Part shown: piece by piece, positions 1-13,507 of the stretch | Numbering within the stretch: position 1 is the first letter of the stretch | Layout of the letters: every line of letters starts with the position of its first letter | Virus record (IMG/VR): IMGVR_UViG_3300037189_026208 | Location: 54,423 to 74,422 of that record | Origin: an uncultured virus (IMG/VR IMGVR_UViG_3300037189_026208) | Taxonomy: Duplodnaviria > Heunggongvirae > Uroviricota > Caudoviricetes | Length of the DNA stretch: 20,000 nt | Strand: one strand, 5' to 3' | Position numbers and translations under genes: made by a program | The notes under the pieces: model-generated | Databases searched by the model: none | What the model saw: the letters and a program-made list of their open reading frames with translations, nothing else | Told to the model about the DNA's origin: nothing

Positions 1-7
1 ACTCATA

Positions 8-262
8 TTAATCTTTATTTACTACGCTGTCAAAACCTGCACTCCAGAGATCAGCAGCTTTTTTATTACCGCCTTTATGAGGATTTTCAGGCATAACACC
101 ATCTCTGAGATATCTTCTTCCAGCTAAAGCGCCATGGGCAAAATGATCAGATGCATCTGAGGCTGCGTGATAATCAGTAGGAGTTCTTGACATAAGTTTT
201 TCGTATTCTTGTCTACTAATAGTATCGTATGCTTCGTTTAAAGCGGTTTCGAATTTCGACAT
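8..262 (-). CDS. small hypothetical protein with T4-like leader (MSKFETALNE); C-terminal half weakly Rmf-like
   Basis: 84-aa ORF with TAAATA 6 nt upstream of ATG; G..AG...ENPH...ADLWSAGF loosely resembles the Rmf pattern. Confidence 0.75.
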   Translation of the reverse strand: MSKFETALNEAYDTISRQEYEKLMSRTPTDYHAASDASDHFAHGALAGRRYLRDGVMPENPHKGGNKKAADLWSAGFDSVVNKD

Positions 263-285
263 ATAATATATTTAAGGTTTAATAT

Positions 286-335
286 AAAAAAAGAGACGGT
301 AGATCAAGAGGCGACCAAGCCCTCAACCTACCGTC
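286..335 (-). terminator. intrinsic terminator
   Basis: Minus strand GACGGTAGGTTGAGGG...CCTCTTGATCTACCGTC stem (with G-U pairs) followed by TCTTTTTTT. Confidence 0.8.
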
Positions 336-406
336 ATTTTGCTCTTGTTTAACGTCGTAGCGCTAGCCAACTCAGACGGGTCTAAGTACGCTCTATGTTT
401 TTGTAA

Positions 407-471
407 CGTACCCCTCTGCGTTTCCTTAGTAAAGGCTCCGGACTTGAGACCGGCTTAGTAGCATTAATACG
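407..471 (-). ncRNA. twister self-cleaving ribozyme (type P1, with P5 hairpin)
   Basis: CGUAU-UAA-UGC-UAC-UAA-GCCGG-UCUC-AAG-U-CCGG-AG-CCUU(UACU)AAGG-AAAC-GCA-GA-GGG-GUACG. P1 CGUAU/GUACG, P2 UGC/GCA, P4 from the two CCGG arms, T1 CUC/GGG, T2 AC/GU; conserved U^AA cleavage site and catalytic G. Confidence 0.88.
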
Positions 472-490
472 ATGTTTTAATCTACACATG

Positions 491-519
491 AATCTATATA
501 CAGTATCCGGATCAGGCAA
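491..519 (-). promoter_or_regulatory. sigma70-type promoter for the ribozyme-containing RNA
   Basis: TTGCCT-17 nt-TAGATT; predicted start ~484. Confidence 0.6.
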
Positions 520-612
520 GCAAAGAAATAAAAATATTATTAATGGAAACCCCATAAAAACCGCTATACCTTCCAGATACTGTAAAATAGCACTCACTAG
601 CAAATAACGATT

Positions 613-1578
613 TTACGTTATAGCATCAATTAATCCACCGAAATTTTCTTCGGTCTCCGGATCAATTATACCTTTTAGTAAATCAGATTCTATTGGATAA
701 AGATCATTATACTCGACTACATATTTTTCACTTTTATCTTTAGCAAAATCAGGCTCAACAAGAGCTTGTCGTACGCGATGTCTTGCCCAAGGACTCATTT
801 CCACAGCTGGTTTAATGTATGTAGCAAGTTCACCTTTCCATAAATTATCTCTATCACTTCTTAAACAAACTCTATCTCCCTCTTTAAGGTTGTTTCTCCA
901 TGTTTCTAAATCAAAATCCTTACTCTCTGTAACACTTAGTAAATCACTAAATGAATCTTTAGTATCTTTTGTTAATGACTTTCTTAATTCCCAATCAATA
1001 GGAAATAATTTACTTAGATTGTATCTAGTATAGCCTTGAGAGCCATCTATATTGTGACCTTCTTTAACAAGTAAAGCAATATCTCTAAAACTATCAACTA
1101 CTTCTAAATATGTAGCTTTAAATCCACGGACAGTAAAAGGTCTAACTTCTACCTTATCGCCTTTCTTTAAGTTACTTCGCCAAGTTCTAAGATATTCGTA
1201 ATCCTCTTGAGTCTCTTCTGATACTATATCGATTAAATCGCTAAATGAATTTTCTGTATCCTTAGATAGAGAGTTCTTTAATTCATATTTTTTTAAAGCT
1301 TTTTGTACTTTATCGGTTACAACCTTTCTAACTGTATAGTAACTATCAGGTACATGTAAGCTTCTATACCATTCATCAAAATCTTTCATATGAACAAACC
1401 AACCATTACCTGATTTAGCATCTCTAGTCCATATAGCAGGTTTTCCGTCTATAATAATATCCCAACAAGGATTCCACATCTGACCTCCCATTAAGGTTTC
1501 AAAAGGACCCTTAACAATCTCTACTTTAAGATCATTAGCTCTTCTTAATTCCTCTAATATAAGATCATTAAATCTCAC
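613..1578 (-). CDS. tag-family protein with three fused units (units 2 and 3 SH3/KOW-like)
   Basis: GTG start with TAAATA 7 nt upstream; leader MRFNDLILEE; tags LSKDTENSFSDLIDIV, LTKDTKDSFSDLLSV, IDPETEENFGGLIDAIT. Confidence 0.9.
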   Translation of the reverse strand: MRFNDLILEELRRANDLKVEIVKGPFETLMGGQMWNPCWDIIIDGKPAIWTRDAKSGNGWFVHMKDFDEWYRSLHVPDSYYTVRKVVTDKVQKALKKYELKNSLSKDTENSFSDLIDIVSEETQEDYEYLRTWRSNLKKGDKVEVRPFTVRGFKATYLEVVDSFRDIALLVKEGHNIDGSQGYTRYNLSKLFPIDWELRKSLTKDTKDSFSDLLSVTESKDFDLETWRNNLKEGDRVCLRSDRDNLWKGELATYIKPAVEMSPWARHRVRQALVEPDFAKDKSEKYVVEYNDLYPIESDLLKGIIDPETEENFGGLIDAIT

Positions 1579-1717
1579 GGTTTATTATTTATCAATATCT
1601 GCTCTAGCGCGGCGAGGTTTCTCCTAATTTCCCCGCTTAGTGCATCCGTCTCGGCCCCAAAGTTTTTGAAAATATTTTATACTCTAAATTGAATTCCGAT
1701 TATTAATTCTAGGGAAA

Positions 1718-2002
1718 TTAAAGAATATCTAATAGATCTCCGAACGTCTCGCCTGTCTCCTTGGACAGATGCCGCTTTATATTATGATCTTCTATAGCTT
1801 TGGCAATAGCGTTCTTTACTCCTTGCTTCTTATAGAGTTCAAGTCCCCAAACAGTGAGGTATTGGTTAGTCTCCAAATATCTAAAACCATCTGGCTCCTC
1901 GCCTATTGTTAACTTCTGGCCATCTACCTCCACGTCATAGCCTATATAGCCTTCGTCCTTAAGGTCGTAAGGACCTCTTAAGAATTTTACTTTATAAGAC
2001 AT
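1718..2002 (-). CDS. tag-family protein, last array member
   Basis: Ends LSKETGETFGDLLDIL; GGAGG 8 nt before ATG. Confidence 0.9.
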   Translation of the reverse strand: MSYKVKFLRGPYDLKDEGYIGYDVEVDGQKLTIGEEPDGFRYLETNQYLTVWGLELYKKQGVKNAIAKAIEDHNIKRHLSKETGETFGDLLDIL

Positions 2003-2345
2003 CTAAGAACCCTCCGAATGAATCTCTTGTTTCTGGAGACATAGCTTGAAGTGTCTCCCAATTCTTAATAGCTTTAGCTACCGGACCGTTTTCAGTATCT
2101 TTTCCATCCCAAAGGTAAATCTCTGGCATATAAAGAACATAAGGGTATTCACCACGTTCTGGAGTATAAATGACAAAACTATTTCGATCTTCCGTATCCT
2201 CTTTAATATGCATTAACCAGGCACCTTCTATATCTTCGGGAAGTGTATAGCCTCGCTTTAGATACTCATTGATCTCTTCATCGGTAGCCCTTCTTAGGAC
2301 TTTATAGAAGTTACCAGACTCTAGAAAGAACTTGTTAAAGGACAT
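1992..2345 (-). CDS. tag-family protein
   Basis: MSFNKFFLES...MSPETRDSFGGFLDVL; 11-nt overlaps with both neighbours. Confidence 0.9.
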   Translation of the reverse strand: MSFNKFFLESGNFYKVLRRATDEEINEYLKRGYTLPEDIEGAWLMHIKEDTEDRNSFVIYTPERGEYPYVLYMPEIYLWDGKDTENGPVAKAIKNWETLQAMSPETRDSFGGFLDVL

Positions 2346-2709
2346 CTAATAAACCTCCAAATGAATCTTTAGTTTCTTTGTCTACACTATTTAAAAGATT
2401 ATAATCTTCTATAGCCTTGTCTATTTGTTCTCTAAACGGATCATCATAGACGTCGGTATGATTGGGGATAATCTTAGGATAGGGAGGTAGCCAATGCCCT
2501 CTATAATGACCTGGTGGCCAGCAGTAATAGCATATGCACTCCTTGTCCTTATACTTCATTTGTAGCTTATAGACATTCTCTTCCCAATCTTTTATATCCA
2601 GCTCATTACGAAAGAGATGGGTCATTGGTCCCTCAAGTATCTTTACTTCAATTCCTCTATTATCACCGTAATTGATAAGAGCTTCTTTTATTAATCGATC
2701 AAAGTACAT
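2335..2709 (-). CDS. tag-family protein
   Basis: MYFDRLIKEA...VDKETKDSFGGLLDVL. Confidence 0.9.
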   Translation of the reverse strand: MYFDRLIKEALINYGDNRGIEVKILEGPMTHLFRNELDIKDWEENVYKLQMKYKDKECICYYCWPPGHYRGHWLPPYPKIIPNHTDVYDDPFREQIDKAIEDYNLLNSVDKETKDSFGGLLDVL

Positions 2710-3115
2710 CTAATAATCCTCCAAATGAATCTCTTGTATCTTTACTTAATCCTTGCTTAAAATTCCATTGATCTATAAGAGCTGGAACTGTTTCACGTAA
2801 CATCTTATTAAGGAATTGAGCTCTCGGGGCTGACTTGTGTTGTCTACCGACCATACGTTTAAACCAAGTAGGTGTTTGAATAACAGTATAATAAGCTGTT
2901 GTCTTCTGAAGCTCTCTATCTTTATCCTCTATCTTCTTAACCCACCAAGTACCTCCTTTACTATCCTTTAAACAAAAGACCTCTTTATAGTCTTTATGTG
3001 GAGGTTGTTCAAGATGAAGCTCACCAGTAAGACTATCCATAAAGCCGGTACCTACAACCTTAAATGTTGTATTCATCCAGTCCAGTTCTTCTAATACTAA
3101 TTGATTAAAGTACAT
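2699..3115 (-). CDS. tag-family protein
   Basis: MYFNQLVLEE...LSKDTRDSFGGLLDVL. Confidence 0.9.
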   Translation of the reverse strand: MYFNQLVLEELDWMNTTFKVVGTGFMDSLTGELHLEQPPHKDYKEVFCLKDSKGGTWWVKKIEDKDRELQKTTAYYTVIQTPTWFKRMVGRQHKSAPRAQFLNKMLRETVPALIDQWNFKQGLSKDTRDSFGGLLDVL

Positions 3116-3467
3116 CTAATAATCCTCCGAATGTTTTCTTTGTATCATTACTTAATAGCTTTCTAAACTCCCAATCATTAATAGCATCAGGAACTAACCC
3201 GGAGAACCCCATAAAGGTTACATCTCCGCTATCATGAATGTTGTAGCTAGTATATCCTTCCTTCTCGTTATCTTTAAACCGTACAACAAGACGCGGCCAA
3301 TACCCAGGTCTATTACCATCATCGTCTACCACCCAGGCACCTTTTATATACTCTTCCCTTACCCAGCGATAGCCATAACCGTATATCCTCTGAAGATCTT
3401 CTTCTGTAGCGTCCCGAACGACGTGATACTTCTCTAAAGCTTCTAATACTATTTGATTAAAGTACAT
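3105..3467 (-). CDS. tag-family protein
   Basis: MYFNQIVLEA...LSNDTKKTFGGLLDVL. Confidence 0.9.
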   Translation of the reverse strand: MYFNQIVLEALEKYHVVRDATEEDLQRIYGYGYRWVREEYIKGAWVVDDDGNRPGYWPRLVVRFKDNEKEGYTSYNIHDSGDVTFMGFSGLVPDAINDWEFRKLLSNDTKKTFGGLLDVL

Positions 3468-3798
3468 CTAATAATCCTCCGAAAGTTTCTCTTGTATCCT
3501 TTGATAAGGATTGTTTTAATTCCCAATCTTTCATAGCTTTAATAATAAGGCTATCAAGTGTATCAATATCAATACCGAATAGCTTTTTACATTGATCTCG
3601 TTCATATACAGCATTATCCGGATCAATTCCTGAAGTATTTAAACCATCGAGATAAAGCATACATTGATCATCTTTGACATAACGAAAGAAACACTTCTTA
3701 CCATTTACAGTTATATTATAATGAAGGTCTCCGATAGCCCAATCTGGAAGATCTTTGTCTTCTATAACATTAATAATCTTAATAGAAGGTTGTTTCAT
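3457..3798 (-). CDS. tag-family protein without N-leader
   Basis: Ends LSKDTRETFGGLLDVL; starts 8 nt after the previous stop. Confidence 0.9.
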   Translation of the reverse strand: MKQPSIKIINVIEDKDLPDWAIGDLHYNITVNGKKCFFRYVKDDQCMLYLDGLNTSGIDPDNAVYERDQCKKLFGIDIDTLDSLIIKAMKDWELKQSLSKDTRETFGGLLDVL

Positions 3799-3806
3799 AT
3801 AGGCTA

Positions 3807-4343
3807 TTAGAGGGCGTCTAGGAAGTCCTTAAATGATCCTTGAGTCTTAGTATCGGTTTGTCCTAGAGCTAAGAAGTTCTTTTCTTTATGTTTTATCCAC
3901 CAGTTTACTAGCTTATCTAGCTTCTCGGCAAATGCGTAATGATAACCTTTCTGCCTCCATACTGGATCCTCTGTATTATTATCATAATGAACGAAGTAAC
4001 TTATATATGGATATAAAACATTCGGTACCCAAGAGGCAGCTGCAGCAATATGGGTAGGTCCTGTTTCATCTTCAAGTCTTCTAGTATCATCAATACAAGT
4101 CATATAATATGTCTTTGTATCTGTCCATGTAGCAAGCTCCCTAGTCTTATGTAATATACCATTAGGTTCAGCCTCCTTCGGTAGTCCTTCTTTAATGTCA
4201 TATATCTCAAAGTTATGAAAGGGCATTGAATCAACCTCATCCGTTGACCAGACCGATCGTTCAAAGCCTTGCTTTCTATCGGGGTTTCTTGATCGAGGTA
4301 CATTAGCTACTAGAGCCTCTTTGAAGTAATCTTTAAATGACAT
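3807..4343 (-). CDS. tag-family protein, longer core, divergent tag
   Basis: MSFKDYFKEA...TDTKTQGSFKDFLDAL. Confidence 0.88.
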   Translation of the reverse strand: MSFKDYFKEALVANVPRSRNPDRKQGFERSVWSTDEVDSMPFHNFEIYDIKEGLPKEAEPNGILHKTRELATWTDTKTYYMTCIDDTRRLEDETGPTHIAAAASWVPNVLYPYISYFVHYDNNTEDPVWRQKGYHYAFAEKLDKLVNWWIKHKEKNFLALGQTDTKTQGSFKDFLDAL

Positions 4344-4680
4344 CGATTAAACCTCCAAATGATTGTTCAGTATCCTTTGATAGATTGTTTTTTAATTCCC
4401 AAGATATAAGCTGTTTGTATATAGGAAAGTCCGGATAGATATACCCTTCAAAGCCATAATTAGGTAAGCTATACACCATTAAGTTTTCATTGTTAAGATC
4501 TTCAAATAAGTCCTTACAACGTATGACTAGAACATCAGATACATCGGTATAGTTTCTAATTACCCATCCTCTAGTTAATTTTAAATCCTCATCATATTGA
4601 GAAGATAAACCATCGAGTATTTTCTGAGGAGCTAATTCTATCTTCTCCTTCTTTGATTCGTAGAATAACTTAAATGACAT
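4333..4680 (-). CDS. tag-family protein
   Basis: MSFKLFYES...LSKDTEQSFGGLIDVI. Confidence 0.9.
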   Translation of the reverse strand: MSFKLFYESKKEKIELAPQKILDGLSSQYDEDLKLTRGWVIRNYTDVSDVLVIRCKDLFEDLNNENLMVYSLPNYGFEGYIYPDFPIYKQLISWELKNNLSKDTEQSFGGLIDVI

Positions 4681-5068
4681 CTAGTAGCCCTCCGAAAGTA
4701 TCTCTTGTCTTATCTGGTAGATGCCTCCTTTGTTCAAAGTCATCTATAGCCTTAACTACTCTCCTACCTTCTTCTCTATAGGCTGGTATATCCCGCTCGG
4801 TAAAGGCACCACATCTATCCATACCTTCTAAAGTATAAACATCATAACCTTTTACATACGTAATAGATCTTATAGCAATATATCTAGCAATATATCTATC
4901 AGTTCCTGATTCCTTCTTTATAGTAAGAAGATAGAGAGGGTCATCTTTTCTCCAAGGATACTTCCTACGAAAGACCCCCTCATACCCCTCAGGCACTGCT
5001 TCTACAGTTATATTATCTCTTTGAAGCTTATAAGGCTCTTTAGATTCGTAGAATAACTTAAATGACAT
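4670..5068 (-). CDS. tag-family protein
   Basis: MSFKLFYES...LPDKTRDTFGGLLDVI. Confidence 0.9.
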   Translation of the reverse strand: MSFKLFYESKEPYKLQRDNITVEAVPEGYEGVFRRKYPWRKDDPLYLLTIKKESGTDRYIARYIAIRSITYVKGYDVYTLEGMDRCGAFTERDIPAYREEGRRVVKAIDDFEQRRHLPDKTRDTFGGLLDVI

Positions 5069-5411
5069 CTAATAGACCTCCAAATGAATCTTTAGTATCG
5101 TCTGATAGATTATTTTTAAACTCCCATTTCTTAATAGCTTTAGCAAGAGGTGAGTTTATATCCTCATGACTAATAAGGTCAATAGTGTTAGGGTCTAATG
5201 TGTAAATTGAATATGTCTTCCAGTCAGGAATATATGCTACAATAACCTGTCCTTCATCATAGTCATCGTTCATATAAACGATCCATGCCTGTTCAATATC
5301 TCCCTTCTCCGTATCAAGATCTCTTGTAAGATCTTTAAGTTCTTTCTTTGTAAATCTTCTAAGAACTTTGTATGAGTCGTTTGACTCTGTAAAAAATTGT
5401 TTAAATGACAT
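5058..5411 (-). CDS. tag-family protein, first array member
   Basis: MSFKQFFTES...LSDDTKDSFGGLLDVI; AAGGAG SD; TAAATA at 5433-5438. Confidence 0.9.
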   Translation of the reverse strand: MSFKQFFTESNDSYKVLRRFTKKELKDLTRDLDTEKGDIEQAWIVYMNDDYDEGQVIVAYIPDWKTYSIYTLDPNTIDLISHEDINSPLAKAIKKWEFKNNLSDDTKDSFGGLLDVI

Positions 5412-5431
5412 CTATCTATCTCCTTGATAGA

Positions 5432-5626
5432 TTATTTAAGAGTCTTTATTTCATTCCCTATCTCTACTATATACTCACCTATCTTAGACATGCCGAGCTC
5501 CTTGGTTAGGCTCTGCTTCTCCCTTAGTATTCTAACGATAGTCTCTAGCTTACCTAGATAGTCTTCTAATGTAAGCCCGGATAGATCTTCCTTTAGATAG
5601 CCTGATACAATTTCATTAAACTTCAT
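5432..5626 (-). CDS. small helical protein with T4-like leader (MKFNEIVSGYLKE)
   Basis: 64 aa; TAAATA 7 nt upstream; first gene of the array operon; no C-tag. Confidence 0.8.
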   Translation of the reverse strand: MKFNEIVSGYLKEDLSGLTLEDYLGKLETIVRILREKQSLTKELGMSKIGEYIVEIGNEIKTLK

Positions 5627-5662
5627 AGTCTATTATTTAGTCTATGAACAGGTTTAATAGTA

Positions 5663-6214
5663 TTAGGATTCCCTCTTTATAATAGTTAATCCGTTGTTGT
5701 TAGTGTAGGTACAAACCTCTTTCCATTCCTTATGATTAGAAAGGAAGAGCTTAATAGCTGGTACCAAACCAATCCTTCCCTCTACAGTTGATCCATCCTC
5801 ATTAACCGTTCCGAAAGTAATAGTATCATGGAACAGTATATACTTCTTAACCTTACTATGATGTCTCTCAAGTTCTCCTAATACCTGATCGTATGTATGC
5901 AGAGTATCTATAAAGAGCATATCTACTTCCTCTAGATCATACTCCAAGGTACTAGCTTGATCAAAGCGCATATTAACATTCTCTCTCTTACATTCTTCCT
6001 TAAAGATATCGATATTGTAATTCGTATTAATATCTACGCATATAAGCTTCTTAGGATTAGCCTTAGCTAGGGCATAAGAGCTAACTACATTACGTACACC
6101 AAACTCAGCTATTGTTTCACACTCCCTAGCGTATGTGTAAAGGGTCTCCAGATGTTCATTAATATCTGAAGGTGTATATCTTCTTTCGTTGTACCTTGAA
6201 TCTATAATACTCAT
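5663..6214 (-). CDS. class I SAM-dependent methyltransferase (Methyltransf_24-like)
   Basis: IAEFGVRNVVSS motif I; DMLFIDTLHTY; YILFHDT; NNNGLTII. Confidence 0.85.
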   Translation of the reverse strand: MSIIDSRYNERRYTPSDINEHLETLYTYARECETIAEFGVRNVVSSYALAKANPKKLICVDINTNYNIDIFKEECKRENVNMRFDQASTLEYDLEEVDMLFIDTLHTYDQVLGELERHHSKVKKYILFHDTITFGTVNEDGSTVEGRIGLVPAIKLFLSNHKEWKEVCTYTNNNGLTIIKRES

Positions 6215-6270
6215 TTAATAGAATTTATACTAGTCTTTTATATAGTGCTAGTATCTATTAAATGTTTATA

Positions 6271-6459
6271 TTACTTTTCTTTATCTTGCTTTACAGTTAC
6301 TACTAAGTTAACCGGCTGGCTATTCTCTTTATCAAATACTATACCACCATGGGTATGATTAAGTCCTGCTACAATTGCTCCTGTTATATCAAAGAATGTA
6401 TAAGCTATACAGAAGTAAATTAGGAAGTTCTTTAGCGTTAATTCTCTTAGAAAGTTCAT
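6271..6459 (-). CDS. small membrane protein
   Basis: One hydrophobic segment; TAAATA 7 nt upstream. Confidence 0.7.
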   Translation of the reverse strand: MNFLRELTLKNFLIYFCIAYTFFDITGAIVAGLNHTHGGIVFDKENSQPVNLVVTVKQDKEK

Positions 6460-6846
6460 ATAGAACTATTTAAGGTATTTGAAAGGATTTTATTCCGGAT
6501 TTTGTTCCTTCCTCATCGATAGTCAGGCATGGAGCCTCTTCTACCGACCAGCTCGTGCTTAATCAATACATCAGGATCAAAGCTTACCATAGGTCTTTGG
6601 CTCCCCTGAACTAGATAGAGTCTATAAGCATCACCAACGAGCAATTCGACTCTACCTCCCTCTAGGATTATACCTACAACTAGAGGGTATTAATTTGTTT
6701 GACCGGGGTGGTTAATCCATCCTGATGCACCGGTTGATAAAGGCCTTTTAGAGCAACCTAGTCACGCGCACGTACGGTAGCTCTTTCGATCGAGCCTGCG
6801 AACGGTCAAAATGTTTTAAAGGCCTAAGCCATCATAGTCCTCCATA

Positions 6847-7050
6847 TTAATATCGTCCATGTCTCTTATCATAGGTAGCAAAAGGATCAGAGTCTACAAT
6901 GGTTACCAGGACCCAGGCCGCTATACAATTCCAAAAGGTATAATGAATATTGGTATGGAATAGATAATTGATTGCCCAGATACCGAGCCAGATGTCTAGA
7001 ACTCGATAGATGATATAGTAGATGCCTCGTACTAGTTCGTTCCGTTCCAT
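6847..7050 (-). CDS. small two-TM membrane protein (start revised to MERNEL)
   Basis: Two hydrophobic segments; ATG 1 nt after the upstream stop. Confidence 0.7.
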   Translation of the reverse strand: MERNELVRGIYYIIYRVLDIWLGIWAINYLFHTNIHYTFWNCIAAWVLVTIVDSDPFATYDKRHGRY

Positions 7051-7051
7051 A

Positions 7052-7210
7052 TTACTTCCTCTTCTTACCTGCGTCCGATCGTTGGGCACGATAGGCTCCT
7101 ACCTTAGATCCCTTTGGTACTCCGGCCGATAGTTGAGTACGAAGATACTTGGCCGTATTATAACGAACCAATGATCCACCTTTACAGATTTTGTTCTTTG
7201 TTGTTGCCAT
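7052..7210 (-). CDS. basic 52-aa microprotein (not in ORF track)
   Basis: MATTKNKICKGGSLVRYNTAKYLRTQLSAGVPKGSKVGAYRAQRSDAGKKRK; fills the gap between neighbours. Confidence 0.7.
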   Translation of the reverse strand: MATTKNKICKGGSLVRYNTAKYLRTQLSAGVPKGSKVGAYRAQRSDAGKKRK

Positions 7211-7215
7211 ACAGA

Positions 7216-7413
7216 TTAGATATTATAGGCGTTATCGATAACGGCAAGGTAATAACCATCTAGATCTACCTCCCACCTATCTACCTTTGTATTCTTTACT
7301 AGGTTATGAACCTTATACCTATCATCATTAGAGTAGATATTGACAATGACCTCCTTGTCTAGCTCCTCCTCTGGTACCTCTGAGAGCTTATTCTTTAGAT
7401 CCCTATAGGTCAT
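7216..7413 (-). CDS. small phage protein, MT..EL...L family
   Basis: MTYRDLKNKLSEVPEEELDKEV; similar N-terminus to 8815, 17969, 18781. Confidence 0.75.
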   Translation of the reverse strand: MTYRDLKNKLSEVPEEELDKEVIVNIYSNDDRYKVHNLVKNTKVDRWEVDLDGYYLAVIDNAYNI

Positions 7414-7617
7414 TTAATTAGTAAAGTAGGTAGGGTTGGCTCGGAAGGCTGGAGTAGGTTTAGTAAGCTGGGAATGCTTTACTGAATCCTTTCCGAGATA
7501 ATAGACACCAATGATGGCGTAGAGGACAATGTTACAGGTAACATAAGTTATACAGAATAGCTTATAGGTATCCCAGATAGCTTCCTTGAGACGATTAGAG
7601 GTTATAGTAGAGCTCAT
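7414..7617 (-). CDS. small membrane protein
   Basis: 67 aa, hydrophobic core, abuts next gene. Confidence 0.65.
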   Translation of the reverse strand: MSSTITSNRLKEAIWDTYKLFCITYVTCNIVLYAIIGVYYLGKDSVKHSQLTKPTPAFRANPTYFTN

Positions 7618-7789
7618 ACTTGTAGTTATTAATGTTGTTGTTGTTTGACATACGCCTCAGCCATCCATCCTGGGTAGTTGATTGTATGTGGTTTAGAAGA
7701 AGAGAAGGCTTCCTCTCTACGGAGTACCCGAAGATATTAAAGAAAGCTTCTAGAGGGTTCTTAATGAATGTCTTGATCTTATTCTTCAT
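7595..7789 (-). CDS. hypothetical protein (start revised to MKNKIK)
   Basis: TTGCCG-17-CATAAT-6-ATG. Confidence 0.65.
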   Translation of the reverse strand: MKNKIKTFIKNPLEAFFNIFGYSVERKPSLLLNHIQSTTQDGWLRRMSNNNNINNYKYELYYNL

Positions 7790-7829
7790 ACGAGTATTAT
7801 GAATGCTTTGGTTGGAACCGGCAACTACT

Positions 7830-7958
7830 TTATCGATCAAACGATTTAAATGATTGGCGGTTATAGTTCTTCTTATTCTTAAAGGCCTTCTGACCCGGGG
7901 CCCAATGCCGCCGGGTCTTAATCTCCTTTAGAGAGATGGTAAATGCTTTCGTCTTCAT
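7830..7958 (-). CDS. basic 42-aa microprotein (not in ORF track)
   Basis: MKTKAFTISLKEIKTRRHWAPGQKAFKNKKNYNRQSFKSFDR; TTGCAG-17-TACTAT-7-ATG. Confidence 0.7.
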   Translation of the reverse strand: MKTKAFTISLKEIKTRRHWAPGQKAFKNKKNYNRQSFKSFDR

Positions 7959-7999
7959 ACTACTAATAGTAGAAGCTTATAGAGGCACCTGCAAGTATC

Positions 8000-8164
8000 T
8001 TATAGAGCCTCTACCGCTCTCTTCATACTATCTATCTCCATGACGACGTCGGAGTAGGCTACTACTAGCTCTTGGATCTGCATATCCTTCTGATAGATTT
8101 GATCCTTGAGGACGGCTATGAGCTTCTCCATCTCTTCGATCTTGTTTTGTAGGTCTGTTGTCAT
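8000..8164 (-). CDS. 54-aa coiled-coil protein (not in ORF track)
   Basis: MTTDLQNKIEEMEKLIAVLKDQIYQKDMQIQELV...; ATGA overlap with 8161..8451. Confidence 0.75.
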   Translation of the reverse strand: MTTDLQNKIEEMEKLIAVLKDQIYQKDMQIQELVVAYSDVVMEIDSMKRAVEAL

Positions 8165-8451
8165 TTTGTTGTAGGTGGTTCTTGGCCGGGATTACCATCC
8201 GTCCTCCAGGTACTATAGATGCCTTCATTGAGGGCGTCGATATTGGCGTAGTTGTGGATCAGATCGTAGTCATGCTTGAACTGTAGCGTACCCCAAACCA
8301 GAACCAGAGCTACCCAGAGGGCTAGGATCAATGGCCAGATACGAAGGTAGAGCCTATCTACAAACCTTCTTAGACGCCTCAGTTGTACTTCGATCTCAAC
8401 TGAGATAGGATACCAATATGTCCATTTGAGCTGTTGGGTCTTGGAGAACAT
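8161..8451 (-). CDS. membrane protein
   Basis: TM segment IWPLILALWVALVLVWG. Confidence 0.7.
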   Translation of the reverse strand: MFSKTQQLKWTYWYPISVEIEVQLRRLRRFVDRLYLRIWPLILALWVALVLVWGTLQFKHDYDLIHNYANIDALNEGIYSTWRTDGNPGQEPPTTK

Positions 8452-8458
8452 AATCCTT

Positions 8459-8608
8459 TTAATTCATCATTGTGTTCTGGGTAATGCATACCCTATAAAG
8501 CTTCTCCATGGCGGCCAGGTACTCCTCATCGACTCCCATGAGCCTGGCCGCCATTTGTCGCATGCTATTCATCTCTTCTTCAGAGATGGAGTCTAAAGCG
8601 TTCTCCAT
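8459..8608 (-). CDS. 49-aa microprotein (not in ORF track)
   Basis: MENALDSISEEEMNSMRQMAARLMGVDEEYLAAMEKLYRVCITQNTMMN; fills the gap between neighbours. Confidence 0.6.
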   Translation of the reverse strand: MENALDSISEEEMNSMRQMAARLMGVDEEYLAAMEKLYRVCITQNTMMN

Positions 8609-8612
8609 TATC

Positions 8613-8810
8613 TTATTCGGTTACAATCTCGTAGGTAAGGGACTGGATAGCAAACCCATAGGCGTCGGCGATGGCGTCGGCCAGATCCTCTTCGAGGTTG
8701 CAGCTATCAGGGAACTCAAACTCCAGATCGACTGGAAGGTCACAAAGGTCCTCTTCATTATCGACGACCCAATAGATGTCGGTTACTTTGATCTTGTTCA
8801 GTAGTTCCAT
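8613..8810 (-). CDS. acidic small phage protein
   Basis: IKVTDIYW...DLP...LADAIADAYGF, a pattern typical of small phage proteins. Confidence 0.75.
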   Translation of the reverse strand: MELLNKIKVTDIYWVVDNEEDLCDLPVDLEFEFPDSCNLEEDLADAIADAYGFAIQSLTYEIVTE

Positions 8811-8814
8811 AGTC

Positions 8815-9006
8815 TTAGATTCCGTAGGAGGTTAATACGAGGTAGAAATGATCGGGGTCGAGAACGTCATTGGCGTCATCGGTAGATACTTCGGCGTGAT
8901 TGATTGAGCAGAAGTCATCACGATCAGGATCATAGACGGTGACTGTGTCTTCAAGACGCTCTTTAGGAAGCTTCTTAAGCTCGTTGAGGAGTTGTTTGTA
9001 GGTCAT
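8815..9006 (-). CDS. small phage protein, MTY.QLL..L family
   Basis: MTYKQLLNELKKLPKERLEDTVTVYD. Confidence 0.8.
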   Translation of the reverse strand: MTYKQLLNELKKLPKERLEDTVTVYDPDRDDFCSINHAEVSTDDANDVLDPDHFYLVLTSYGI

Positions 9007-12924: not shown

Positions 12925-12998
12925 TGGCTACCCCTCATGGATTCGAACCATGACAAAGAGAGCCAAAATCTCTTGTGCTACCGTTACACTAAAGGGTA
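12925..12998 (-). tRNA. tRNA-Gln(TTG)
   Basis: Cloverleaf; AGAGA-TT-TTG-GC-TCTCT; GGTTCGAATCC; CCA encoded. Confidence 0.95.
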
Positions 12999-13002
12999 AG
13001 AA

Positions 13003-13077
13003 TGGCTCCCGAGGCTGGATTCGAACCAACAACATGCGAGTTAACAGCTCGCTGCTCTACCGTTGAGCTACTCGGGA
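13003..13077 (-). tRNA. tRNA-Asn(GTT)
   Basis: GCGAG-CT-GTT-AA-CTCGC; CCA encoded. Confidence 0.95.
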
Positions 13078-13083
13078 ACAATT

Positions 13084-13166
13084 TGGGCAGAGAAGGACTC
13101 GAACCTTCGAAGGCGAATGCCAAAGGATTTACAGTCCTCCCCGTTTGACCGCTTCGGTATCTACCC
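13084..13166 (-). tRNA. tRNA-Tyr(GTA)
   Basis: GAGGA-CT-GTA-AA-TCCTT; long variable arm; CCA not encoded. Confidence 0.93.
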
Positions 13167-13217
13167 GTATTGCTTATACAATTTATAATAGACATAGATA
13201 TAGTCAAGAGAATAAAA

Positions 13218-13292
13218 TGGCATCCTCAAGGGGATTTGAACCCCTGCTAGGTCCGTGAAAGGGACCGGTGCTAACCGCTACACTATGAGGAC
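13218..13292 (-). tRNA. tRNA-Glu(TTC)
   Basis: GGTCC-CT-TTC-AC-GGACC; CCA encoded; TTGCCT-16-TATAAT upstream. Confidence 0.95.
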
Positions 13293-13507
13293 ATAGATAG
13301 AGTATTATATAGGCTCTATAAGAATAGGCAAGAGCTATTAAAGGAATCTAAGAGAAATTCCCCTTATTAGGAGGCTATAAGGACTGTTTATATGAGAAAA
13401 AAATTAAAAAAATTCTTGAAAAATTGTAAGGACACACTAAGTGTTTTCTAAGTATTCGCAATTATTCTTCCATTCCCTAATCAATCTTTAATAATCTTTA
13501 ATACTCT

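Follow-up and report, generated by a model that had tools for sequence, protein, structure and literature searches.

The stretch of DNA analysed here, called the window, comprises 20,000 nucleotides (nt) of an uncultured T4-like phage (IMG/VR record IMGVR_UViG_3300037189_026208, positions 54,423 to 74,422). Near its beginning, on the minus strand, a block of tandem genes is followed by a predicted self-cleaving twister ribozyme of type P1 at positions 471-407 and, 71 nt downstream of the twister, by an intrinsic-terminator-like hairpin with a U-run. On the sequence evidence given below, we regard 471-407 with high confidence as a real type-P1 twister. The elements of the ribozyme are as follows, in window coordinates.

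407..471, minus strand: type-P1 twister motif, P3 absent and P5 hairpin present (RF03160 alignment, minimum free energy (MFE) fold)
465..466, minus strand: predicted cut between U466 and A465, at U5-A6 in the alignment, within the conserved UAA of the Rfam consensus
467..471 / 407..411, minus strand: helix P1, 5 base pairs (bp), C471 G470 U469 A468 U467 (CGUAU) with G411 U410 A409 C408 G407 (GUACG), from the sequence
461..463 / 417..419, minus strand: helix P2, 3 bp, U463 G462 C461 with G419 C418 A417 (RF03160 alignment)
458..459 / 442..443, minus strand: pseudoknot T2, A459-U442 and C458-G443, from the sequence
438..453, minus strand: hairpin P4, CCGG-UCUCAAGU-CCGG, strands 453-450 with 441-438 (RF03160 alignment)
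449..442, minus strand: loop L4, UCUCAAGU, source of the T1 strand C448 U447 C446 and of the T2 strand G443 U442
C448-G412, U447.G413 (wobble) and C446-G414, minus strand: pseudoknot T1, from the sequence
424..435, minus strand: hairpin P5, CCUU-UACU-AAGG, a 12-nt insert relative to the Rfam model (alignment, MFE fold)
421..423, minus strand: AAA before the 3' strand of P2 (P2')
412..416, minus strand: 3' strand of L1, GAGGG, with the conserved guanine G416 and the T1 3' strand G414-G412 (RF03160 alignment)

The covariance model RF03160 (Rfam twister-P1) aligns over its full length (model positions 1-68 of 68) to 471-407 on the minus strand, and the match is reported as 408-470, with 35.8 bits and an E-value of 3.5e-6 in a 501-base search. 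It is the sole twister-P1 match in the 74,422-base virus record from which the window comes (E 1.2e-7) and likewise in a 218,400-base copy of this phage with a completeness rating of 100% (E 3.6e-7), the other 144 kb of which were scanned for twister-P1 alone. The gathering cut-off of the family is 67.2 bits, a threshold of the curators and no property of the RNA itself. The low score arises because the optional 6-bp P3 hairpin of the model is deleted and 12 nt, the P5 hairpin, are inserted after P4. At Rfam gathering cut-offs, only four tRNAs are reported in the window, and the 74-kb record yields 11 tRNAs and no ribozyme.

Each uppercase position of the RF03160 consensus is retained or compensated, with T2 present as AC/GU in place of GC/GC and T1 as CUC/GGG. 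The conserved nucleotides include the cut-site UAA, the L4 sequence U-N-N-C-A-A-G, the AAA before P2', and the GAG of L1 together with the guanine at the base of P2. P1, P2 and P4 follow one another in type-P1 order with the ends in P1, and both pseudoknots, T1 (L4-L1) and T2 (L4-L2), are complementary; the fourth P2 position, U460.C420, is unpaired. The accessible text of PMC6154101 places the scissile bond of twister at a U-A step and reports that a guanine at the foot of P2, which is highly conserved, makes contact with the scissile phosphate; G416 occupies this position at the base of P2 in the RF03160 alignment. An earlier note on this DNA had claimed all twister elements at 471-407, including the AC/GU form of T2, with cleavage between 466 and 465 and a catalytic G at 416, and had proposed a search with the Rfam model as a check. 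The search returned the full-length match described above, though below the cut-off, the elements were found where they had been placed, and the predicted cut site and catalytic guanine coincide with their consensus counterparts. The MFE structure of the 65-nt core 471-407 consists of P1, P2, P4 and P5. We also note that an open reading frame (ORF) at 382-603 overlaps the ribozyme; considered as coding sequence, it gave no family match and crosses the conserved ribozyme core, and it is treated as spurious.

Because its folding energy is not unusual, the case for the twister is built on covariation together with the covariance-model match. Three pattern scans of viral contigs on the L4/P4 core gave 41, 28 and 30 loci, many of which read as twisters. 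Alignment A1 holds 23 distinct viral type-P1 twisters, including that of the window, in which pairs were counted for the known structure and both pseudoknots; its members were chosen via a pattern from the window and so are not a random sample, and P4 and T2 were unable to vary because the search patterns fixed both. Paired cells make up 85.6% of A1 compared with 72.5% after shuffling, and the covariation score is 0.326 compared with 0.102, neither value being reached in any of 500 shuffles; when the partners are slid by 1-3 columns, the score is at most 0.107. Changes on both sides are seen in all seven pairs of the P1 columns and at two of the three T1 pairs. T1 is 98.6% paired, and its middle pair occurs as CG (8), UA (8), AU (4), GC (1), GU (1) and UG (1). 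In the 9-sequence phage lineage to which the window belongs, T1 is fully paired, two P4 pairs have changed on both sides, and the fourth P2 pair is open in all nine sequences. The P4 variants CUGG/CCAG, CACG/CGUG and AGG/CCU, found among the loci with a conserved RNA described below, therefore supply the P4 covariation missing from A1. The relative L119 (duplicate L121) has the same U.G wobble in T1 as the window, and there the twister is adjacent to that RNA.

An Rfam run on 20 viral loci gave nine type-P5 twister matches in eight loci above the cut-off (42.8-61.6 bits versus 37.6) and one further type-P5 match under it (32.8 bits). The type-P1 cut-off of 67.2 bits missed every type-P1 match in these loci, since all six scored 31.4-54.1 bits. 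This cut-off misses versions without P3, and such versions appear common in viral contigs. Among 35 distinct viral twister-like sites, 24 have an ORF start at most 40 nt downstream, by a crude ORF-start rule and with only part of the sites model-checked. As a separate observation, many twisters of types P5 and P1 on unrelated viral contigs have a ribosome-binding site and start codon 2-40 nt beyond their end, among them those of L006, L018, L049, L052, L059-L061, L064, L071 and L073. The same 16-nt P4/L4 core is found with a differing flank UAAACCAC...GGGGAG in L007, L008, L009, L015 and L040, and with a differing flank CCCCUGAGUUGUAAGGCC... in L016, L022 and L038; both groups may be other twister permutations or variants. 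One type-P1 twister, in L097, has an AT-rich P3; its contig bears the label of a giant-virus bin.

The sequences on either side of the ribozyme contain the following features.

286..335, minus strand: intrinsic-terminator-like element, a 41-nt hairpin at 335-295 and then a U-run at 294-286 (U7), -25.4 kcal/mol, tail UCUUUUUUUA
369..386, minus strand: spacer hairpin ACUUAGA-CCCG-UCUGAGU, which forms when the twister helices are enforced
491..519, minus strand: weak promoter-like match TTGCCT-17-TAGATT, 8/12 by hand and sub-threshold; also TTGCTT-19-TATAGA
8..262, minus strand: downstream gene of 84 amino acids (aa), ATG at 262, starting 23 nt after the U-run (ORF list; no family found)

The terminator was called by the hairpin-plus-U-run rule of this analysis, by which 335-286 is the sole such site on the minus strand of window positions 1-9000; a simple terminator scan did not list the element. 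The strict form of the rule is passed by five of the 35 viral twister-like sites, and all five belong to this phage or its relatives. Two further relatives have the same hairpin 3' of the twister with an interrupted U-run. Upstream of the ribozyme, a sigma-70 scan (-35 and -10 hexamers, a 16-18 nt spacer, at least 9 of 12 matches) found no site on the minus strand between 612 and 470. Better promoter-like sites are present in other gaps of the window, such as TTGCCT-16-TATAAT preceding a tRNA cluster. A possible promoter, TTGATC-15-TATATT, lies over the 3' arm of the terminator (281-307, minus strand), which would give the 84-aa gene a PeSL-like layout; it was noticed by eye, and its spacer is outside the range of the scan.

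The complementarity AGCGUACUU/GGGUACGUU between the 3' part and the ribozyme is present in the sequence. Two candidate competitors of the twister fold were rejected, both on folding energies that leave the pseudoknots out. The downstream one has a free energy difference (ddG) of 4.9 kcal/mol, compared with 3.7 +/- 2.8 for shuffled sequences (155 of 500 shuffles at least as high), and the upstream one a ddG of 4.0 compared with 2.8 +/- 2.5 (82 of 300 mononucleotide shuffles at least as high); both are at chance level. A blastn comparison of window positions 1-1700 with 57 kb from five related loci matches the core 469-414 only, the 3' part 406-286 being without similarity in these nearest relatives, and the spacer hairpin 369-386 is not conserved among them. 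In the earlier note, the locus was described as a stand-alone ~200-nt non-coding transcript with a sigma70-type promoter upstream, a terminator downstream, and a 3' part containing the hairpin ACUUAGA/UCUGAGU and a sequence able to compete with P1/T1, so that the RNA may switch conformation. The terminator and the hairpin are indeed there. The promoter was not recovered, the best candidate matching at 8 of 12 positions by hand, and the competing pairing exists as complementarity that is no stronger than in shuffled downstream sequence. The stand-alone transcript loses ground on these points and on the missing similarity of 406-286, whose covariation in relatives had been proposed as a further check.

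By PHROG matches, the phage is a T4-like myovirus, with a gp43-type polymerase, UvsX, a gp32-like protein, helicase, primase, an SbcCD-like nuclease, tail sheath, tail tube and large terminase; its G+C content is 35.6%, and its polymerase shares just 31-34% identity with the counterparts in cultured T4-like phages that infect Pelagibacter and Synechococcus. Among 50,697 phage records, neither blastn in near and distant modes nor tblastn with the two flanking proteins found a close relative of the locus. When viral contigs were scanned with protein guidance, only the same phage was returned, and of two metagenome scans, one gave no matches and the other 463 pattern matches, none of which was confirmed. 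Relatives were reached only via the sequence of the twister core. The viral twisters nearest to it are carried by five contigs, G002-G006, which are true relatives because several of their proteins are shared with this phage at 49-91% identity. The sizes and completeness of two of them (130 kb at 60%, 76 kb at 35%) imply genomes of ~215 kb.

The twister of these relatives sits among tRNAs, transfer-messenger RNA (tmRNA) and group I introns, directly 3' of a conserved stretch of ~230 nt (alignment A4), and is followed by a spacer of 26-66 nt and then by a hairpin with a U-run. Such a terminator-like hairpin is found 3' of the twister in every related locus inspected. The P5 site of relatives holds hairpins different from that of the window. 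The ~230-nt stretch matches no Rfam family and appears to be a structured RNA, with 43 predicted pairs of which 15 show compensatory changes (alignments A5 and A6). In the relatives it lies at L109:5990-6220, L110:6071-6298, L111:5810-6036, L112:4302-4530 and L113:9343-9576. As side observations, L113 has a tRNA directly 5' of the RNA and the twister 3' of it, and a tmRNA gene overlapping a group I intron match lies beside tRNA genes at L110:6806-7426 and L112:5756-6377 (minus strand).

A DNA search with the RNA of the relatives revealed a homolog in this phage, placed ~6 kb upstream of the twister. The intervening region is laid out as follows, from 5' to 3' on the minus strand.

6469..6696, minus strand: homolog of the conserved structured RNA
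6272..6457, minus strand: small ORF of ~61 codons, directly 3' of the conserved RNA (by eye from the sequence)
5663..6214, minus strand: methyltransferase-domain gene (PF13578, E 1.3e-7)
1718..5411, minus strand: ten tandem paralogous genes, the 'tag' family, with overlaps of ~11 nt and a shared C-terminal motif of consensus LSKDTxDSFGGLLDVL (alignment A2)
613..1578, minus strand: 321-aa gene with three tag-family modules in a row (translation)

Thus the order 3' of the conserved RNA is small ORF, methyltransferase gene, ten tag genes, 321-aa gene, a 141-nt spacer, twister and terminator, so that 13 genes (~6 kb) separate the RNA from the twister; the hairpin-plus-U-run rule finds no other terminator-like site between the two. 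The tag family belongs to no Pfam family and has marginal PHROG matches only (E 0.002 and 0.008), and no homolog was found outside this phage; it was also not found in G002-G006, records of 5-60% completeness that give weak evidence of absence. The 321-aa protein is likewise without a Pfam family, with a marginal match to phrog_9662 (E 0.0021), and a comparison with 5.8 billion proteins returned itself only. A second tag-family cluster is found in L108. Elsewhere in the window, a cluster of four tRNAs (Gln, Asn, Tyr, Glu) occupies 12925-13292 on the minus strand and is preceded by the promoter-like TTGCCT-16-TATAAT at 13304-13331, and a further seven tRNAs are clustered ~3 kb past the start of the window (L076:10633-11539).

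The conserved RNA of this phage is 81.6% identical to that of G003 and 57-59% to those of the other relatives, and the G003 RNA is 60-67% identical to the remaining ones; a further stretch, 6697-6760, is common to this phage and two relatives. A scan of viral contigs for the invariant motif of the RNA gave 11 loci, including this phage. The twister begins ~100-114 nt after the motif in all ten of the other loci (eight distinct sequences). This phage is the sole one in which the two are apart, with no twister adjoining the RNA at 6696-6469. An insertion of ~6 kb in this phage would be the simplest history, because its sister G003 and all other relatives keep RNA and twister adjacent. The parts of the arrangement are mosaic among relatives (alignment A4): G003 and G002 are 62% identical in the RNA, 98.7% in the twister and 88.7% in spacer and terminator, and G005 and G002 are 96%, 93% and 52% identical, respectively.

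These observations incline us, by a modest degree, to the reading that twister and terminator form a 3'-end module for the upstream transcription unit, here the tag-family mRNA. A module at the end of a unit is suggested because only this phage and its relatives carry a terminator where 24 of the 35 viral sites have an ORF start. A polymerase coming from the upstream unit (conserved RNA 6696-6469, small ORF, methyltransferase gene, ten tag genes, 321-aa gene) would transcribe the ribozyme, which would fold into P1, P2, P4, P5, T1 and T2 and cut at U466|A465, that is, in the nascent RNA 5-8 nt past the end of the upstream sequence. The polymerase would stop ~180 nt after the cut, at the hairpin and U-run 335-286. 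The products would be the upstream RNA with a 2',3'-cyclic phosphate end and without the terminator hairpin, and a ~179-nt by-product with a 5'-OH end consisting of ribozyme, spacer and terminator. The relatives' module would give the conserved ~230-nt RNA its 3' end; the substrate in this phage would now be an mRNA because ~6 kb of genes came between RNA and ribozyme. Trimming of the 3' end of tag-family mRNA had been a secondary remark of the earlier note, and it is this reading that the comparative evidence favours. Computation shows that the motif is present, that it covaries and that the architecture is conserved; that polymerase passes through the site, that the RNA is cut and that its stability changes at all is our inference. 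The cut might serve the stability of the upstream RNA, rid it of the hairpin or supply a by-product of use to the phage.

More tentatively, and with somewhat less than even confidence, twister and terminator may be a portable 3'-end maker of an uncultured T4-like lineage (~215 kb), acting on the ~230-nt RNA in the relatives and on a message in this phage after the insertion of 6 kb and 13 genes. Both ends of the conserved RNA could be set by processing and not by a promoter and a terminator, because a tRNA directly precedes it in one relative.

Several points weigh against the reading of the locus as a twister within a 3'-end module. The twister scores below the gathering cut-off, and its nested helices are as stable as those of shuffled sequences (z -0.07; 86 of 200 shuffles as good). 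A promoter-like match, though sub-threshold, lies 17-18 nt 5' of the predicted cut. Similarity of the twister and its flanks to the relatives is confined to the core 469-414, so homology of the whole module is deduced from architecture, and the rearrangement is given its direction by parsimony over a similarity matrix, not by a rooted tree. The relatives are also few and partly near-identical, with eight distinct sequences, so that their common layout could go back to a single inherited arrangement rather than to repeated selection.

The first two of these points are what a chance resemblance to the twister consensus would have in its favour. We find such a coincidence barely credible, given an E-value of 1e-7 per genome, a full-length alignment, complementarity in both pseudoknots and the recurrence of the sub-type with covariation in related phages. 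The promoter-like match bears on another explanation, a stand-alone small RNA gene transcribed from 519-491, in which the twister would remove a leader of ~18 nt from a ~200-nt transcript to leave a ~179-nt 5'-OH RNA that acts itself, perhaps by switching its fold. The -35 hexamer of the match is the same as that of the good site at the tRNA cluster, an AT-rich tract lies 5' of the match, a strong terminator closes the unit, and T4-type phages carry cassettes of promoter and stem-loop between small genes (PMC2839356). We nevertheless judge a stand-alone gene to be unlikely: the promoter match of 8/12 is absent from the output of the sigma-70 scan, the nearest relatives have nothing similar to the body of the putative RNA (406-286), the proposed switch does not exceed chance with either downstream or upstream sequence, and the abutment of twister and conserved RNA in ten of ten related loci leaves no room for a promoter of its own.

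The twister could instead process the 5' leader of the 84-aa gene, if the terminator is leaky, by splitting a read-through RNA and leaving the gene a structured leader with a 5'-OH end. The frequent ORF starts after viral twisters (24 of 35) and the suggestion that twisters process polycistronic RNA (PMC6765202) speak for such a function, as does the interval of just 23 nt from U-run to ATG 262, because of which the gene needs either read-through or a promoter overlapping the hairpin. The ORF starts 144 nt after the ribozyme, however, with the -25.4 kcal/mol hairpin and U7 between, and an extended -10-like TGCTATAAT after the terminator in two relatives, noticed by eye, suggests a separate promoter; leader processing is accordingly given a low probability. 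A last possibility is that the insertion has left twister and terminator as a relic, cut off from their original RNA and no longer cleaving or mattering. The isolated position among the 11 loci, the U.G wobble in T1 and the P2 of just 3 pairs speak for a relic, yet the wobble is shared by L119/L121, where the twister adjoins the RNA, and the 3-bp P2 by nine of nine lineage members. All conserved positions and the P5 hairpin are intact, and P1 differs from that of the relatives and still forms its 5 bp. Decay thus seems to us improbable, and a 3'-end module for the upstream unit remains the preferred reading.

Should the more tentative reading of a portable 3'-end maker be true, comparative genomics would here reveal the substrate, and hence the purpose, of a natural twister. 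Roles of twisters in bacteria and phages are described as still largely elusive (PMC6765202), and no paper in the literature searched describes twisters of T4-like phages or twisters coupled to terminators. The arrangement of RNA, twister and terminator in the relatives speaks for a role of this twister sub-type in forming 3' ends, and this phage would be a natural variant in which genes have been inserted between RNA and ribozyme. Twister chemistry itself is well understood, and in this respect the locus is an ordinary addition to the class.

Compared with described type-P1 twisters (RF03160, clan CL00120), such as O. sativa Osa-1-4 and env22 in the accessible text of PMC6154101, the ribozyme of the window has the same order P1-(UAA)-P2-T2-P4/L4-P2'-L1-P1' and keeps both pseudoknots, the U-A cut site, the L4 sequence, the AAA and the G at the base of P2. 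It differs from a typical member in the absence of P3, the presence of P5, T2 as AC/GU, the U.G wobble in T1 and a P2 of 3 pairs; P0, P3 and P5 are present in 21%, 78% and 1% of annotated twisters, respectively (PMC6154101). Twister cleavage in a 3' untranslated region or between genes has been suggested to alter transcript stability or to separate cistrons (PMC6765202). The same source, which cites reporter constructs, calls the natural role unresolved, and its accessible text describes no pairing of twisters with a terminator or a conserved upstream RNA.

The locus also resembles the PeSL cassettes of T4-type phages, which are terminator-like stem-loops, often with a sigma-70-like promoter, that border modules of small genes in hyperplastic regions and have been linked to modular shuffling of these genomes (PMC2839356). 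Here, too, a stem-loop closes a 13-gene block not seen in the relatives, and the parts are mosaic among them. Unlike this locus, the PeSLs described in the accessible part of that source hold no ribozyme, and a repeated PeSL consensus is not shown in this phage.

The closest functional precedent is that of the theta ribozymes, minimal ribozymes like that of hepatitis delta virus (HDV), which are likewise small self-cleaving ribozymes of tailed phages on the 3' side of an RNA gene and which, beside phage tRNA genes, have been proposed to cut off 3' trailers (PMC10879173, accessible text). The two differ in class and fold, and the twister would leave 6-8 nt of P1 on the upstream RNA. The upstream partner here is a conserved RNA outside Rfam (in this phage an mRNA) and not a tRNA, and a terminator follows. 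The position of the relatives' twister in a tRNA/tmRNA region, directly 3' of a structured RNA, resembles the placement of theta ribozymes.

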